From contig JAJYXD010000076.1 in assembly GCA_021791135.1 (NCBI GenBank), positions 1-26,422 of the forward strand: a stretch of 26,422 bases of DNA. The letters run 5' to 3'. This stretch comes from a bacterium (GTDB lineage: Bacteria > Patescibacteriota > Minisyncoccia > UBA6257 > GWB1-50-10). This document shows positions 15,642 to 21,870 of the stretch, piece by piece (the stretch's first letter is position 1; each line of letters starts with the position of its first letter). Under the pieces are notes generated by a model, which saw only the letters and a program-made list of their open reading frames with translations, ran no database searches and was not told the DNA's origin. The translations under genes were made by a program, and so were the position numbers.

Positions 15642-16325
15642 GTGGTTGACTTAAAATTAGTAGAGCCGAAAGATTTTTGGTATGTGGTTGGTCTTATAGT
15701 CACTGATGGTAACCTAAGTAAGGATGGGAGACATATTGATATCACATCAAAAGAGATATCTCATCTTGAGAAGGTAGCGAACGCCTTATTTTTCAAAAAT
15801 CCCATTGCTTCAAAATACAGCGGAAGAAATAGAGAAAAGACTTATTTTCGTTTACAATTCAGCGATGCAAAGCTTTATAGATATTTGCAAAATATTGGTA
15901 TTACTCCTCGAAAATCACTAACGTTGCGCGATATTAAAATCAATGAAAGATATTTCAGAGATTTTCTAAGAGGGGTTATTGACGGAGATGGGTCGATCTG
16001 TGTATGGAAACATAGAACCAACGGACACCAGCAGTGGTCACTTAGAATAGTTTCTGCTGCACCAATATTCAGTAAGTGGATAAAGGAAGAAATAGAAACA
16101 CACTATAAAGTGAGGGGTCGATTGCATGTCCGCGCACATGATGAAAAGAGAAATAATCTTCATATAATAAAATTCGGAAAATTGGCAGCGAAGGTAATCT
16201 TATCTGATATATACTATAAAGGCGCGCTCTTTTTAGATTCGAAACACAAAAGACATTTAGAATGTTTACAAGATGAATCTAAAATGATTAAATACGGTGA
16301 AGTTCTAAGAGCCCGGGTGTCGTAA
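15642..16325 (+). CDS. Double-motif LAGLIDADG homing-endonuclease-like protein
   Basis: YVVGLIVTDGN and FLRGVIDGDGS motifs; AT-rich; ends 15 nt inside tRNA-Leu. Confidence 0.88.
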   Translation: MVDLKLVEPKDFWYVVGLIVTDGNLSKDGRHIDITSKEISHLEKVANALFFKNPIASKYSGRNREKTYFRLQFSDAKLYRYLQNIGITPRKSLTLRDIKINERYFRDFLRGVIDGDGSICVWKHRTNGHQQWSLRIVSAAPIFSKWIKEEIETHYKVRGRLHVRAHDEKRNNLHIIKFGKLAAKVILSDIYYKGALFLDSKHKRHLECLQDESKMIKYGEVLRARVS

Positions 16326-16996: not shown

Positions 16997-18763
16997 TTAT
17001 CCCTCGTCGCTGAACTGAAGATCGTGAAGGCGCTTGTAGGTCGGGCTCTTTTTCAGCAATTCTTTATGTTTCCCTATCGCCTCGATCTGATTGTCTTTGA
17101 ATACTACAATCGCATCGGCGCGAAGAATGGTCGAGAGACGATGCGCGATGATAATCGACGTTCTGTCTTTCACGAGCGCATCGGTCGCCTTACTGATCAA
17201 TCGCTCGCTCTCCGTATCCAGATGACTCGTCGCCTCGTCCAAGATGAGAATCCTCGGATCCCGAAGTACCGCGCGCGCGATACCGACCCTCTGGCGCTCG
17301 CCGCCCGAAAGTTTGATGCCGCGTTCTCCCACGAGTGTCTCATATCCCTTCTCGAGTTCCAAAATGAAATCGTGCGCAAGCGCCGTTTTTGCGGCGTTCT
17401 CGATCTGGGTTTTTGAAACACTGGGCTGTCCATAGGCGATGTTCTCCGCGACGGTTCTCGAAAAGAGATCTACTTCCTGCGGCACGACCGCGATCTGGCG
17501 GCGCAGGCTCTCCTGCGTCACGTCGCGAATGTCGACGCCGTCGATCGAGATTGTTCCTTTTTGCGGATCGAATGACCGCAAAAGCAGATTAATGAAGGTG
17601 GTTTTACCGCTTCCCGATCTTCCGACAAGGGCGACGGTTTTCCCGGCGGGAATCACGAGATTGATATCCTTGAGCGCCCATTGCTTGTCATTTCGATACG
17701 CGAACGAAACATTTTTGAATTCGATCTGCGTCTTGAGCGACGGCAGGTCGATCGCGTCGGGTTTGTCGTTTACCATCACCGGCTCGTCGAGCACCGCAAA
17801 CAATCGTTCCACCCGCGTCGCGTTGCGCCGTAAGCGCGGGAAGATAATCGAGAGCTGTGCGAGCGGCTGATACGCCATGTTTTGAAGGGTGATGAAAAGC
17901 ACGAACTCGCCGATCGTCGCCGTGCCGTTAAACACGAACCATGCGCTTAAGAGAAGTACCGCAACGCGCCCCACGGTCGCAATCGTTGTCTGCACGTTTT
18001 CGACGACTCCCCACAGGCGTTCCGCGCTGTATTGGATCTCGCGCGCTTCGATTAAAAGCAGTCGTTCGTGTTCCGTTTCTTCTTTTTCCTGTGAGAACTT
18101 TTTTACCGTAAGCACGTTTCCCGCAACGTCGTACAGTTCTCTCGAGACGTTTTCGAACGCGTCGTTCGCGCGCTGTTCGATCTCGTAGATCTTCTTCGAC
18201 AGGCTTCTTGTTATGAAAAAATACACCGGGAACGGCACGAGCACCGCGAGCGCGATCCACGCATTTTCGTAGAGCAGCGCGCCGAAAGTGCCTACGAACA
18301 CCACGAGCGGCGGAAGCAGATTCTGCCCCATAATGTCGTTCAAAATCACCCAGACGGCGGTGCCGCCGCGCTCGATGCGGCCGATAATCTGCCCGCTCGA
18401 AGAGCCGTGATGAAAGAGCGCGTGCAGCTTGAGATACTTCTCGAATGCCGCATTTCGTATCCTGTCCTCTACTTTCGTCACGAACTTAAAGAGATGGTAG
18501 TTGTAGGCGGACTGGACGCTGCTACTTACGACGGTCGCCACAAGAATCCCAAGCGCGGAGTATAAAAGCACATTTATGGGGAGCGGTCCTCCGCTTTTAA
18601 GGAAGTTCGTCAACGAATCGATGAGAGATCGTGAAATGAAGGGTACCGCGATATTCGCGCCTTGGGACACCACAATGAGCGCAAACAAAAAAAGAACCGT
18701 GCCTTTTCGGTGTTTTGCAAGCGCGAGAACGCGCCGAACCGTTGATGGTTGCTTTACTGACAT
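16997..18763 (-). CDS. ABC exporter, fused permease and ATPase (MsbA-like)
   Basis: N-terminal TM domain; Walker A GRSGSGKT, LSGGERQR signature, ILILDEATSHLD, IIIAHRLST. Confidence 0.95.
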   Translation of the reverse strand: MSVKQPSTVRRVLALAKHRKGTVLFLFALIVVSQGANIAVPFISRSLIDSLTNFLKSGGPLPINVLLYSALGILVATVVSSSVQSAYNYHLFKFVTKVEDRIRNAAFEKYLKLHALFHHGSSSGQIIGRIERGGTAVWVILNDIMGQNLLPPLVVFVGTFGALLYENAWIALAVLVPFPVYFFITRSLSKKIYEIEQRANDAFENVSRELYDVAGNVLTVKKFSQEKEETEHERLLLIEAREIQYSAERLWGVVENVQTTIATVGRVAVLLLSAWFVFNGTATIGEFVLFITLQNMAYQPLAQLSIIFPRLRRNATRVERLFAVLDEPVMVNDKPDAIDLPSLKTQIEFKNVSFAYRNDKQWALKDINLVIPAGKTVALVGRSGSGKTTFINLLLRSFDPQKGTISIDGVDIRDVTQESLRRQIAVVPQEVDLFSRTVAENIAYGQPSVSKTQIENAAKTALAHDFILELEKGYETLVGERGIKLSGGERQRVGIARAVLRDPRILILDEATSHLDTESERLISKATDALVKDRTSIIIAHRLSTILRADAIVVFKDNQIEAIGKHKELLKKSPTYKRLHDLQFSDEG

Positions 18764-18867
18764 AAGACCTATTTATAACGAACTAAAGGCGAAAAAGTTT
18801 CTTGGCGGAGAGGGTGAGATTTGAACTCACGAAATCCTTTCGGATTTACCAATTTTCCCGCACAAAG

Positions 18868-18954
18868 CGGAAGGTGGAGGATTCGAACCTCCGAGAGAAT
18901 TTCTCCTCTACCGCATTTCAAGTGCGGCGCATTCGACCACTCTGCCAACCTTCC
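18868..18954 (-). tRNA. tRNA-Ser(TGA) nested inside the interrupted tRNA-Ser
   Basis: GGAAGGT/ACCTTCC acceptor, CCGCA-CT-TGA-AA-TGCGG, long variable arm, GGAGG-TTCGAAT-CCTCC, G73; no encoded CCA. Confidence 0.93.
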
Positions 18955-18970
18955 GCTTTGGGCGGGATTG

Positions 18971-19019
18971 CGATTTGTACCTAAAAATTCTACGTGAGCT
19001 TGAATTTTTAGACAAATCG
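18971..19019. repeat. 18-bp AT-rich hairpin with a 2-nt bulge inside the tRNA insertion
   Basis: CGATTTGT-ac-CTAAAAATTC-(11 nt)-GAATTTTTAG-ACAAATCG. Confidence 0.85.
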
Positions 19020-19065
19020 GGAACAAGACCGGCGCATTCGGCCGGGCTCTGCCACCTCTCCGTTG

Positions 19066-19138
19066 TGGACCGTATCGGGCTCGAACCGACGACCTCTTCG
19101 ATGCCATCGAAGCGCTCTACCAACTGAGCTAACGGCCC
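19066..19138 (-). tRNA. tRNA-Ala(GGC)
   Basis: GGGCCGT/ACGGTCC acceptor, CTTCG-AT-GGC-AT-CGAAG, GTCGG-TTCGAGC-CCGAT. Confidence 0.95.
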
Positions 19139-19815
19139 GCTATCACTTCTATTGCTTTCAGTATGTCATTTAAAACCCAAGACGAAAAGAAATCAATCCT
19201 GCAAACCCCTTTATATTCTGGCTTCCTAGATTTTTTACCTACTGTTCTTGGATCAATTCTCGCTTTGTAAAAGCTGCCAAGGGGGATCTTGGTAATACTG
19301 TGCCAATACTGTTCCAACTCTTTTACATTTTGGTCGGCTCTACATTGAACTGTACATCGGAATTTCGACTCATCAATTTTATAACACCTCCTGAAAAGTC
19401 CCAAAAACAACTTTATTACTCTAGGATTAGAATTCCCAAATGTGAGCGTACTGTGCTTAGGATTTTTTGTTCCCTCTCCTAAATAAAGAGTGATGAGAAC
19501 AAGTTTAGCAATATTATTATTCTTGAGTAAGCTCGCCAAATGCTTATTATCCTCAAACAGTTTTGCTAAGAAGCGGGCTCTTTTCTCTTCTCTCACTTTT
19601 TTTGCTTCTTCTCTCCCTTTTGCCATTTTTAGGTTCTGTCTTGTTTTCAAAGTAATTTTAAGTTTTCTTGATAACTCAAATTCTCCGAACCACAAAGATA
19701 GGGTGCTTTTAGGTATTTTGGTACCGAGATAACTATTTATCTCCGAGTAAGTTTTGCTGCTTGTACGCAGATTTATTGCTCTGCTTTTAAAGTGCGAGAA
19801 GTTAGAACGGGACAC
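19129..19815 (-). CDS. HTH plus single LAGLIDADG-like domain protein
   Basis: N-terminal HTH-like KTYSEINSYLGTKIPKSTLSLWF; LITLYLGEG motif, then LTFGNSNPRVIKLFL; likely GTG start at 19815; stop lies 10 nt inside tRNA-Ala. Confidence 0.72.
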   Translation of the reverse strand: MSRSNFSHFKSRAINLRTSSKTYSEINSYLGTKIPKSTLSLWFGEFELSRKLKITLKTRQNLKMAKGREEAKKVREEKRARFLAKLFEDNKHLASLLKNNNIAKLVLITLYLGEGTKNPKHSTLTFGNSNPRVIKLFLGLFRRCYKIDESKFRCTVQCRADQNVKELEQYWHSITKIPLGSFYKARIDPRTVGKKSRKPEYKGVCRIDFFSSWVLNDILKAIEVIAGR

Positions 19816-19821
19816 ATCTGA

Positions 19822-19850
19822 ATTGTACCCCCGGTTTACCCATGTCGCAA
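19822..19850 (-). promoter_or_regulatory. sigma70 promoter for the LAGLIDADG-like ORF
   Basis: TTGCGA-N17-TACAAT, 6 nt before GTG. Confidence 0.55.
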
Positions 19851-19879
19851 GCAACTCAACTGCCTTTCTATTCTTGGTG

Positions 19880-20139: not shown

Positions 20140-20229
20140 GGAGGGTTCGCATAGTGGTCTAGTGCGGCGCACTCGAAATGCGCTTGGGGAGAAATCCCCT
20201 CACAGGTTCAAATCCTGTACCCTCCGCCA
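20140..20229 (+). tRNA. tRNA-Ser(CGA)
   Basis: GGAGGGT/ACCCTCC acceptor, GCGCA-CT-CGA-AA-TGCGC, long variable arm, ACAGG-TTCAAAT-CCTGT, G-CCA. Confidence 0.95.
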
Positions 20230-20235
20230 GTTAGG

Positions 20236-20359
20236 AAATATCCGAACGGAACTGGCTGGGCTCGGCGGGCGGAATTCCCCCCACGCCCCCCTTCCGCCCG
20301 CCTCGCCTTGCCTGCCCGACCGAAACTCTTGAGTGAAGGCGGGAACCGGAGCGGAAAGG
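20236..20359 (+). repeat. Left 124-bp inverted repeat
   Basis: Base-by-base identical to the reverse complement of 21747-21870. Confidence 0.95.
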
Positions 20360-20513
20360 CAAACTGCCAAAGAACCTGTCAAAAATGTCGGCTTGAACTT
20401 TATTTTGGCCAGAAGCGGGCTTTTCTTTTCTGAATTGAAATAAATCATAAAATTTGATAGTATGATACTGATAGTGTATCAAATCATTTTAATACTATCA
20501 AAATACTGCGAGT

Positions 20514-20720
20514 ATGGCAATTGGAAATAACATAGGCGAAAATATCAAGAAACGCCGAACGAAAATGGGGCTTTCGCAAGAGGATTTTGCCCAAAAGTCA
20601 GGCGTGAAATATACGACACTTACCAAGATTGAAAGCGGAGTCATCAAAACGCCGTCTGTGATTATGGTAGAAAAAATCGCGAAAGCCCTCGGCGTTTCTA
20701 TTGAGGATTTATTGAAATAA
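20514..20720 (+). CDS. XRE-family HTH transcriptional regulator
   Basis: NIKKRRTKMGLSQEDFAQKSGVKYTTLTKIESG...PSVIMVEKIAKALGVSIEDLL. Confidence 0.93.
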   Translation: MAIGNNIGENIKKRRTKMGLSQEDFAQKSGVKYTTLTKIESGVIKTPSVIMVEKIAKALGVSIEDLLK

Positions 20721-20721
20721 T

Positions 20722-21184
20722 ATGGACTGGATTACAATAATTTCTATTATTATATCTCCAATACTCGCATTCCTTTTGTGGAGTATTTATGGATTTATCA
20801 AATATAAGCGAAACGAGGGTGAAGCCAAAAAAAATAATTCATCAGTGCGTATCAAAAGGAATGCCTTTGGAAAAAGCTGTTTTGCTAACTTCCTCCAACC
20901 TTAACGAGAGTCATAAACTTGGCTTAAGTCCAAATACGATAAACATAGTGGCTAGCAAAATCTCTGGACTGACAGCAAAAATGGATTCGGATAATGTGAT
21001 AGAGATTTACGCAACATTTTTGCACAGGTATTTTTTTGAAACGGATTCATTAAAAACCTCGGCGGGAATTTCTGACACTCAAATTTTATACGCAATCGAA
21101 TCTATGGAATTTAATGAGCGGAACGGGTATTTTGTTCTCAAGCCAGATCACGGAGAAAAAGACGATCCGAAATATCCACGCTAA
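20722..21184 (+). pseudogene. Membrane-anchored hypothetical protein split by an A8 run (ORFs 20722..20904 and 20789..21184)
   Basis: Removing one A from 20827-20834 joins MDWITIISIIISPILAFLLWSIYGF...EAKK to IIHQCVSKG... giving 153 aa. Confidence 0.6.
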
Positions 21185-21190
21185 ATCTCT

Positions 21191-21718
21191 ATGGACAAAA
21201 CGAAAATTACAACAAAAGAATTCGTACAAGGATTACTTTATACTTTGGTAAAATTTTCTAATCATTTTTATGAAGATTTTGGTGCGCGTGCGATGGTAGC
21301 ACTTGGAATTAAACTTGATGTGGGGCAACTAGTAACTTTAAAAAGAGAAGTTTACATGATCAACATGTGGATTACATCTAAAATTTTGAGTCCAGATAAA
21401 AAAATTCTCGACGAATTCCATAAGAAATATCTTTTTGCTCATGCAGACATGGCCAAGACTGAACAGGGGGAAATCGATTTTCCAAAAATTGCTGAAAAAG
21501 AATTGCATGAAAGATACGCTAAATATTATGCTGATTGGAACGATAAGGGTAGCGAGCAATTTATTTTGGCAATGACTATGCTTGAATATATGCTCAATAA
21601 AGGGCAGCCCGATAAACGTTTTGTGCGTATAGATTTACAATTTTTTGTTATTCAACACATTTATGGGATGATGAAATTTATTATGGATTTCAGGGAAAAG
21701 CATGAAATTATTGATTGA
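21191..21718 (+). CDS. Hypothetical protein, 175 aa
   Basis: Intact AT-rich ORF 6 nt after the upstream stop; no motif recognised. Confidence 0.75.
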   Translation: MDKTKITTKEFVQGLLYTLVKFSNHFYEDFGARAMVALGIKLDVGQLVTLKREVYMINMWITSKILSPDKKILDEFHKKYLFAHADMAKTEQGEIDFPKIAEKELHERYAKYYADWNDKGSEQFILAMTMLEYMLNKGQPDKRFVRIDLQFFVIQHIYGMMKFIMDFREKHEIID

Positions 21719-21746
21719 ATGCCGCCAAAGAAAAACTTGAAATCGT

Positions 21747-21870
21747 CCTTTCCGCTCCGGTTCCCGCCTTCACTCAAGAGTTTCGGTCGGGCAGGCAAGG
21801 CGAGGCGGGCGGAAGGGGGGCGTGGGGGGAATTCCGCCCGCCGAGCCCAGCCAGTTCCGTTCGGATATTT
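21747..21870 (-). repeat. Right 124-bp inverted repeat
   Basis: Perfect reverse complement of 20236-20359. Confidence 0.95.

Follow-up and report, generated by a model that had tools for sequence, protein, structure and literature searches.

Why should a complete tRNA gene lie within the anticodon loop of another tRNA gene in a bacterium, and what becomes of the gene that is interrupted? The question is raised by positions 18803-19061 (minus strand) of contig JAJYXD010000076.1 (assembly GCA_021791135.1; Patescibacteriota, Minisyncoccia, UBA6257, GWB1-50-10), the full 26,422 nucleotides (nt) of which are referred to here as the window. At this site the two halves of a serine tRNA gene, the outer gene, enclose an insert that carries a full tRNA-Ser(TGA), the inner gene. 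We consider it likely that the insert is a recent break-and-replace insertion of a gene-less, tRNA-carrying cassette that is widespread in Parcubacteria-type members of the candidate phyla radiation (CPR). No description of tRNA-carrying nested cassettes was found in the literature.

The nested serine tRNA locus

Across the window, nine tRNAs were called by ARAGORN and eight by Rfam. Near the nest, both programs report just tRNA-Ala(GGC) at 19138-19066 and tRNA-Ser(TGA) at 18954-18868 on the minus strand, and the outer gene at 18803-19061 was still not found when ARAGORN was run with its intron options. An earlier reading of this DNA, made from its letters and hereafter called the sequence-only reading, had foreseen that standard scans would report the inner gene alone. 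Joining 19061-19024 to 18855-18803 (minus strand) gives a clean ARAGORN tRNA-Ser with seven of seven acceptor pairs (GGAGAGG/CCTCTCC), five of five T-stem pairs, a long variable arm, G73 and an encoded CCA; its anticodon stem has 5 base pairs (bp), including two G-U pairs. The 5' part (nt 1-35; 19024-19061, minus strand) comprises the acceptor strand GGAGAGG, the D arm and the 5' strand of the anticodon stem, and ends in CCGGT CTTG, the last four bases being C32, U33, U34 and G35. The 3' part (nt 36 to 76; 18803-18855, minus strand) begins with AAA and the 3' strand of the anticodon stem and continues through the variable and T arms to CCTCTCC, G73 and the encoded CCA. With the joined halves forming a clean tRNA-Ser, the central claim of the sequence-only reading, that a complete tRNA lies within the anticodon loop of another tRNA-Ser, is confirmed. 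More than 100 independent assemblies show this junction design, which makes misassembly of the nest very improbable.

The insert between the outer halves occupies 19023-18856 (minus strand) and measures 168 nt rather than the 167 nt first counted; the full inner tRNA-Ser(TGA) lies inside it, as had been stated. Its ends, from TTCC to GCGGGA, are set by the consensus of the cassette family described below. The first element of the cassette is a hairpin (18971-19019, minus strand) whose 8-bp foot, CGATTTGT/ACAAATCG, is conserved and whose top varies but remains self-complementary; within this hairpin a sigma-70-like promoter candidate (TTGTCT-17 nt-TAGAAT, 18987-19015, minus strand; a consensus match only) faces the inner tRNA. 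The inner or cargo tRNA-Ser(TGA) (18868-18954, minus strand; ARAGORN and Rfam, 60.4 bits), which we presume to be the gene in use, is wrapped by a helix. The leader strand of this helix, CCCGCCCAAAGC (18955-18966, minus strand), pairs with positions 18867-18857 and covaries with the trailer across loci; the trailer strand, CTTTGTGCGGG (18857-18867, minus strand), is followed by a single A that closes the cassette. In the predicted fold, the 81 nt of the insert that are not tRNA are fully used by the one hairpin and the one 12-bp helix. They match no Rfam family, in agreement with the earlier judgement that this part could not accommodate a group I or group II intron core. The entire 259 nt fold much more stably than shuffled sequences (z = -7.3), giving the outer acceptor stem, the long hairpin and the inner cloverleaf atop a 12-bp extension of its acceptor stem.

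Judged by the junction alone, the outer anticodon could be either GGA or TGA. The boundaries seen throughout the family, with CTTG followed by TTCCCG on one side and GCGGGA followed by AAA on the other, fix the junction, and on this basis the outer anticodon is TGA, identical to that of the inner gene. The outer anticodon loop is then C32 U33 U34 G35, interrupted before A36 A37 A38. The predicted exon-exon junction of the outer tRNA would join GGUCUUG to AAAUUGG, and an uninterrupted, cassette-free outer allele would read GGTCTTGAAATTGG. Since tRNA-Ala(GGC) (19066-19138, minus strand; ARAGORN and Rfam) lies directly upstream, with the outer tRNA-Ser beginning 4 nt past its end at 19066, the two are probably co-transcribed. 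Short identical runs are common to the outer and inner 5' halves. The two genes are separated by compensatory differences in their acceptor and T stems and are therefore not recent copies of each other.

The host genome (G000) spans about 0.6 Mb in 90 contigs and is 87% complete. It carries uninterrupted serine tRNA genes with the anticodons GGA (on contig C33), GCT, CGA and TGA, the last being the inner gene. Because four serine isoacceptors are thus present without the outer gene, the latter is a fifth serine gene and not the missing isoacceptor for which it had been taken in the sequence-only reading; Ser(GGA) is uninterrupted, and the outer gene reads TGA. The closest plain relative of the outer gene is tRNA-Ser(TGA) of genome G006 (81% identity), and because this relative has the same acceptor and T stems, the outer gene represents a genuine tRNA-Ser(TGA) lineage rather than chance halves. 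The inner gene is 97% identical to the plain tRNA-Ser(TGA) of G002, a genome of the same genus, and 94% identical to the cargo of another cassette (L168). In G002 the plain gene lies a few bases after tRNA-Ala(GGC), without hairpin and without outer halves.

The surroundings of the nest are rearranged relative to G002 (window 16997-18802 and 20140-20235). An ABC-transporter gene with its upstream flank follows tRNA-Ser(CGA) in G002 and the nested serine locus in G000, the breakpoints coinciding with the 3' ends of tRNA-Ser genes, and the same flank in G003 adjoins a degenerate tRNA-Ser end. Directly after tRNA-Ser(CGA), the segment at 20236-21870 is GC-rich and unlike the flank in G002.

The cassette family and the fate of interrupted genes

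The hairpin pattern CCGATTTGT-15-60 nt-AYAAAYCG occurs in 52 of the 401 genomes of the order, as against five genomes for a reversed-pattern control, and a longer exact pattern was found on more than 117 contigs of named Parcubacteria/Paceibacterota (CPR) metagenome-assembled genomes (MAGs). The family was analysed through 130 non-redundant hairpin copies, 61 of which carry a tRNA immediately after the hairpin on the same strand. Loci with split tRNA halves around a tRNA, which the sequence-only reading had suggested seeking in CPR genomes, are abundant. By the same reading, the lack of a spliced product together with an uninterrupted isoacceptor elsewhere and an absence of homologous loci would have made the outer tRNA a recent pseudogene; the isoacceptor is present, but so are the homologous loci.

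In the common form of the cassette, the outer tRNA runs to nt 34 or 35 (ending in TTG, TTA or TTC) and is followed by TTCC, by the hairpin with its fixed foot and variable top, and by CAAT. The cargo unit consists of CCCGY-NN-AAAG-C, a complete tRNA and C-TTT-NN-RCGGG-A, after which the rest of the outer tRNA resumes. The window shares the features that define the family, namely fitting outer halves, a complete tRNA with a matching anticodon enclosed by them, and a helix around this cargo. Among the 61 copies the cargo is tRNA-Ser(GGA) in 24, Val(TAC) in 11, Ser(TGA) in 10, Gly(CCC) in 7, Ser(CGA) in 3, Ser(GCT) in 3, Arg(GCG) in 2 and Thr(TGT) in 1. Opposite-strand cargo (Cys, Ala and Val(CAC)) is found in other copies; some copies lie within T loops (L069, L132 and L169), and some are bare and cargo-free, for example on contig C17 of G000 and at L034.

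The hairpin interior is self-complementary in 115 of 128 distinct versions, which indicates covariation, and the hairpin of the window is 94% identical to a copy that precedes a tRNA-Gly cargo in another genus. The leader/trailer helix covaries as well, native pairs having a mode of 11-12 of 12 and non-native pairings a mean of 8.4; CCCGT-AT-AAAG, for instance, occurs with CTTT-AT-ACGGG, and CCTGT-GA-AAAG with CTTT-TC-ACAGG. A terminal pairing of TTCCCG with CGGGAA was considered and rejected, only the internal leader/trailer helix showing covariation (such as CCTGT/ACAGG in L052). The cassette ends offer TCCCG/CGGGA (5 nt) alone as an inverted repeat, and there is no target duplication. The left flank of the insertion is TG in 76 of 130 copies (TTG in 50 and ATG in 26), on either strand of the tRNA gene, and TTA, TTC and GTT are also seen. 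A promoter-like TTGnnn-N16-18-TAnnnT is present inside the hairpin in 31 of the 61 cargo-bearing copies, and in reverse-oriented copies TTGCGA-N17-TAGAAT/TAAAAT faces their own cargo, both being consensus matches only. Relative to the tRNA the hairpin can lie either way round, and in both arrangements a promoter-like site faces the cargo, a pattern that points to a module of DNA and not to a signal in RNA.

The fate of the outer genes was assessed by virtual splicing of all 61 cargo-bearing copies, with scoring by ARAGORN. Explicit splice tests were used because brute-force splicing with free junctions gave mostly chimeras of outer and inner halves. The spliced outer tRNA had the anticodon of the cargo in 17 of 61 copies and gave other, junction-dependent calls in 4 of 61 and no call in 40 of 61; at many loci the 5' half is kept but the 3' half is missing, truncated or re-interrupted. 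Three-level nests of tRNA-Ser with decayed middle shells were found at L052:1460-1960 (contig C43 of G358) and at L048 (contig C71 of G288). In L052, two 5' halves, each followed by a hairpin element, lead to the innermost tRNA, after which the matching 3' halves follow in reverse order. The middle shell of this nest has a D-loop insert (CCCGCC-AGA-GGCGGG) and belongs to the tRNA type that is live as the inner gene of the window, and its anticodon stem no longer pairs; at L077 the same type is a dead outer shell. One locus that had been considered as a cargo-free intron in an intact tRNA, L043 in G160, was ruled out, its cargo being an unusual tRNA-Ser(CGA). A search for bare hairpins within otherwise intact tRNAs found none, their removal giving just chimeras with neighbouring cargo. 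These comparisons show that a cassette family exists, that it recurs at other tRNA genes and in other genomes, that cargo and target have the same anticodon, that outer shells decay and that nests reach several levels. Decay and multi-level nesting are predicted by serial gene replacement and are hard to reconcile with splicing.

G000 contains a second nest, in which tRNA-Val(TAC) at C87:2348-2420 lies within the D loop of another tRNA-Val(TAC) (L211:116-298, equivalent to C87:2315-2497). Its cargo is wrapped by a 13-bp helix, CCCCGTTAGATTT/AAATCTAACGGGG, and is without the conserved hairpin; the same leader occurs in L171, and removal of the insert restores an ARAGORN tRNA-Val(TAC). Two further hairpin copies of G000 lie near contig ends on C17 and C25. 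That on C17 (L021:301-370, C17:7741-7810) is a bare double hairpin in an intergenic spacer, without tRNA halves or cargo. The C25 copy (L212:98-294, C25:5497-5693, minus strand) begins with an orphan tRNA 5' part (nt 1-30), followed by a reversed hairpin element with a small UUCG hairpin replacing the cargo, a fragment identical to the anticodon loop of tRNA-Val(CAC) and then the full tRNA-Val(CAC). This layout is repeated with tRNA-Ala(CGC) in G002, G006 and G008. In G002, G008 and G003, remnants of outer tRNA-Ala and tRNA-Ser genes appear to have their T loop interrupted by a conserved structured insert of another kind, which contains GGGTCGGGRAAAC and CCCGTG (L025:480-610, minus strand; L026:480-610; L204:1400-1500).

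Proposed break-and-replace insertion and its rivals

We propose that the cassette lands in a loop of a tRNA gene with the same anticodon as its cargo; in the window the target would be a resident tRNA-Ser(TGA), entered between nt 35 and nt 36. The insertion would destroy the resident outer gene, and the inner cargo gene would take over. Transcription of the cargo could start at the promoter-like site of the hairpin, come from read-through of tRNA-Ala, or both, after which RNase P and 3' processing would free its tRNA. The two outer halves seen in the window would then be a remnant that is not rejoined, and a recent one because it is still intact. The cassette may spread as DNA into the unbroken tRNA genes of relatives, the tRNA halves serving as homology arms, probably aided by tRNA-gene-cutting homing nucleases of the small GIY-YIG and LAGLIDADG types that crowd tRNA clusters; the interruption would in turn shield the gene from these nucleases. 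Each cargo would offer a new target, so that the process could repeat and nests could accumulate. Homing-like spread is the mode of movement that we favour, given the association with nuclease genes set out below.

Several observations weigh against this account. The outer gene is flawless in every stem, as a functional gene would be. No empty site of the outer tRNA was found among 96 family genomes (46-nt spliced junction, up to 3 mismatches), and insertion into an intact gene is therefore inferred rather than seen. The inner tRNA, at 97% identity to its counterpart in G002, is the ordinary resident type of the genus; a gain of the cassette in G000 and a loss of the shell in G002 would both fit, and such a loss could have come about by deletion between similar tRNA ends. 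No protein family is shared within 1.5 kb of the copies, and no enzyme is tied to the cassette; the link to the nucleases is an association only. Genes of the Y1 transposase family (PF01797) are not enriched with the hairpin (14 of 52 hairpin genomes versus 113 of 401 overall). The wrapping helix may be kept either for RNA processing or as a single-stranded DNA structure.

According to the sequence-only reading, one precursor would yield two tRNAs through excision of the inner tRNA and ligation of the outer halves by an RtcB-type enzyme. The insert would then be a true intron with a nested gene, the 259-nt precursor being cut by RNase P and a 3' nuclease, or at the helix by an RNase III-like enzyme, before a ligase rejoins the halves. 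Such a pathway would suit the perfect outer tRNA, the fold, which juxtaposes the outer halves and sets the insert apart as a self-contained domain, the covariation of the helix beside the junctions, as expected of a processing signal, and the recognisable outer genes in 17 of 61 copies. However, neither RtcB (PF01139) nor EndA (PF01974), both of which that reading had proposed to look for, has a match in the 87%-complete genome (control searches matched in 10 of 14 genomes for RtcB and in four archaea for EndA), and there is no ribozyme match. In a genome of about 0.6 Mb, the outer gene would do no more than duplicate the anticodon of the cargo. Across the family, 40 of 61 outer genes can no longer be recognised, and the middle shells of deep nests have decayed. 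Furthermore, no cargo-free copy lies in an otherwise intact tRNA, and both hairpin orientations occur, which would not be tolerable for an RNA signal. Group I introns do interrupt the anticodon loops of bacterial tRNA genes, as in cyanobacterial tRNA-Leu(UAA) and proteobacterial tRNA-Ile and tRNA-Arg, and the smallest known group I core needs about 200 nt. The cassette shares their position but lacks the core, its non-tRNA part forming two plain helices; an Rfam scan of 18750-19150 up to E = 10, in which the P3-P9 core would be detected by the model Intron_gpI, gave only tRNA and chance matches. The disrupted tRNA genes of archaea and algae include bulge-helix-bulge introns at many positions as well as split and permuted tRNAs, and need EndA and a ligase. 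They resemble the present loci in their interruptions of the anticodon, D and T loops and in the helices that flank the inserted part, but here no EndA or ligase was found and the outer genes decay. Folding and inspection revealed no bulge-helix-bulge, a motif of two 3-nt bulges around a 4-bp helix, at the junctions, TTCC, the hairpin and CAAT separating the 5' junction from the helix and one A the 3' junction; the earlier observation of neither a bulge-helix-bulge nor a duplicated tRNA half holds. We regard a true intron as improbable, and there seems to be very little likelihood that the outer tRNA-Ser is still made by a CPR protein-dependent cut at the covarying helix and religation, with one transcript giving two tRNAs, the cassettes being true mobile introns and the cargo a bonus.

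Single-strand DNA transposition is an unlikely alternative, in which a Y1 (HUH) transposase would move a non-autonomous, IS200/IS605- or REP-like hairpin cassette into exposed loops of tRNA genes, and only insertions with cargo matching the broken gene would survive. It would account for the two structure-conserved, covarying hairpins near the ends, for the lack of target duplication and of long terminal repeats, and for the insertion after TG (TTG or ATG) in the majority of copies on either strand. A 237-amino-acid frame in G000 (L214, C21:4700-5500) matches Y1_Tnp (PF01797, 47.5 bits), and G358, with five hairpin copies, has three Y1_Tnp frames. Similar frames of about 240 amino acids, far longer than classic IS200 TnpA, account for the 113 of 401 genomes mentioned above, and their lack of enrichment speaks against this mechanism too. 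In addition, cargo-bearing copies outside tRNA genes are rare, although untargeted movement predicts them, and selection alone would have to explain the anticodon match in all 17 recognisable outer genes. Small gene-less hairpin elements are well known, among them miniature inverted-repeat transposable elements (MITEs) and REP/PATE elements, and mitochondrial double-hairpin elements of Allomyces were reportedly described by Paquin et al. in 2000. The cassette resembles them in being tiny and protein-free, with two hairpins, many scattered copies and bare copies, but to our knowledge none of them carries a tRNA gene in its hairpin or is sited in a tRNA gene of the same anticodon, and the 5-nt ends and lack of duplication fall short of the hallmarks of MITEs. 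Rearrangement or duplication among the clustered tRNA-Ser genes, with no mobile cassette involved, would agree with the ABC-transporter flank that has moved relative to G002, with its breakpoints at tRNA-Ser ends, with the degenerate tRNA-Ser end beside this flank in G003 and with the short runs shared by the outer and inner 5' halves. Such a local accident is strongly disfavoured and highly improbable, as the junction motifs, hairpin foot and wrapping helix occur in more than 100 other genomes with eight cargo types, the compensatory stem changes show that the outer and inner genes are not recent copies, and the differing tRNA types and flanks exclude one vertically inherited locus. The chance that the nest is an assembly chimera of two strain variants is negligible: the MAG is fragmented into 90 contigs, and its C17 and C25 hairpin copies lie near contig ends, but the nested locus is interior to a 26-kb contig and the same design is found in many independent assemblies.

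Break-and-replace insertion also invites comparison with integrative elements (prophages, integrative and conjugative elements, and islands), which enter tRNA genes through tyrosine integrases, often at the anticodon loop. Williams, in Nucleic Acids Res in 2002, reportedly dealt with integration into tRNA genes, including an anticodon-loop sublocation class. As with the cassette, tRNA genes are targeted, the incoming tRNA sequence keeps the cell supplied, and serial insertions leave orphan pieces. Integrative elements, however, measure kilobases, encode an integrase, replace the 3' part only and leave a direct repeat, whereas the cassette, 168 nt long and without an open reading frame (ORF), introduces an entire tRNA gene and orphans both halves of its target without leaving a repeat. 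There is no integrase gene in these 168 nt, the contents being a tRNA and two helices, and no att-like direct repeat between the left junction (GGTCTTG, then TTCCCG) and the right (GCGGGA, then AAATTGG). A crossover of the integrase or attC-like kind between G and TT was tried and rejected, the right junction not fitting. PF00589 genes are present elsewhere in G000, on C51 and C35.

Candidate nucleases around the nests and the possible meaning of nesting

A free-standing 241-amino-acid ORF, outside the cassette in the spacer between tRNA-Val and tRNA-Ala (19129-19854, minus strand), probably encodes a helix-turn-helix and LAGLIDADG-type homing endonuclease. Its closest Atlas clusters are annotated 'Homing endonuclease LAGLIDADG domain-containing protein' and come from CPR (feature score 0.96); it has no Pfam match, and a sequence search of the PDB gave nothing useful. 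We treat it as a candidate trans-acting nuclease, and as a lead only. Another free-standing ORF (15642-16325, plus strand) fills a spacer between tRNA genes and matches LAGLIDADG_3 with 25.9 bits. The tRNA-Val and tRNA-Ala genes are about 20 nt apart in G002, where a gap of about 740 nt is found elsewhere in the cluster.

At L039, L055, L069, L073, L110 and L141, small GIY-YIG ORFs are located within nested tRNA shells or next to them. At L073 the ORF sits in the D loop of a dead outer tRNA-Ser; at L039 it stands between a bare double hairpin and a helix-wrapped tRNA-Gln; and at L055, L110 and L141 it separates an orphan 5' half from a full tRNA. G000 itself has four small GIY-YIG frames, two of which (on C89 and C83) adjoin tRNA genes. 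A third of these frames, on C5, is enclosed by CCCGTTAGAGAT/ATCTCTAACGGG, a helix almost identical to the one around the tRNA-Val cargo on C87. This ORF (L213; C5:100-700, minus strand), of 86 amino acids, lies between AATCCCGTTAGAGAT and ATCTCTAACGGGA, the same ends as in the C87 cassette, and upstream of it are a CCCGCGC..GCGCGGG helix and then AAAACCCTCC.

A motif in the T arm of tRNA genes is recognised by SegB of phage T4, a GIY-YIG homing nuclease, which drives the inheritance of itself and of neighbouring tRNA genes (PMC2330249). The likeness lies in the setting of a nuclease gene among tRNA genes, small GIY-YIG ORFs being found in or beside the nests here. In contrast to SegB, the cassette of the window carries no nuclease, and the CPR proteins are candidate nucleases by sequence. 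Homing by SegB, moreover, is a regional replacement by homologous repair and leaves no nested, interrupted tRNA genes.

If break-and-replace insertion is correct, selfish DNA can occupy an essential, conserved and often single-copy gene, because the cassette that settles in the tRNA gene supplies a functional substitute for the gene that it interrupts. This would explain the turnover of tRNA genes and the shells of dead copies in these tiny genomes, as well as why tRNA scanners under-report or misreport such loci in CPR genomes and why the tRNA clusters of CPR bacteria are so rich in small nucleases of the GIY-YIG and LAGLIDADG types. Should the outer genes instead be spliced, they would represent a new RNA-processing pathway in bacteria. 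Under serial replacement, the nests would constitute a natural record of successive replacements, since each shell would be an older allele.

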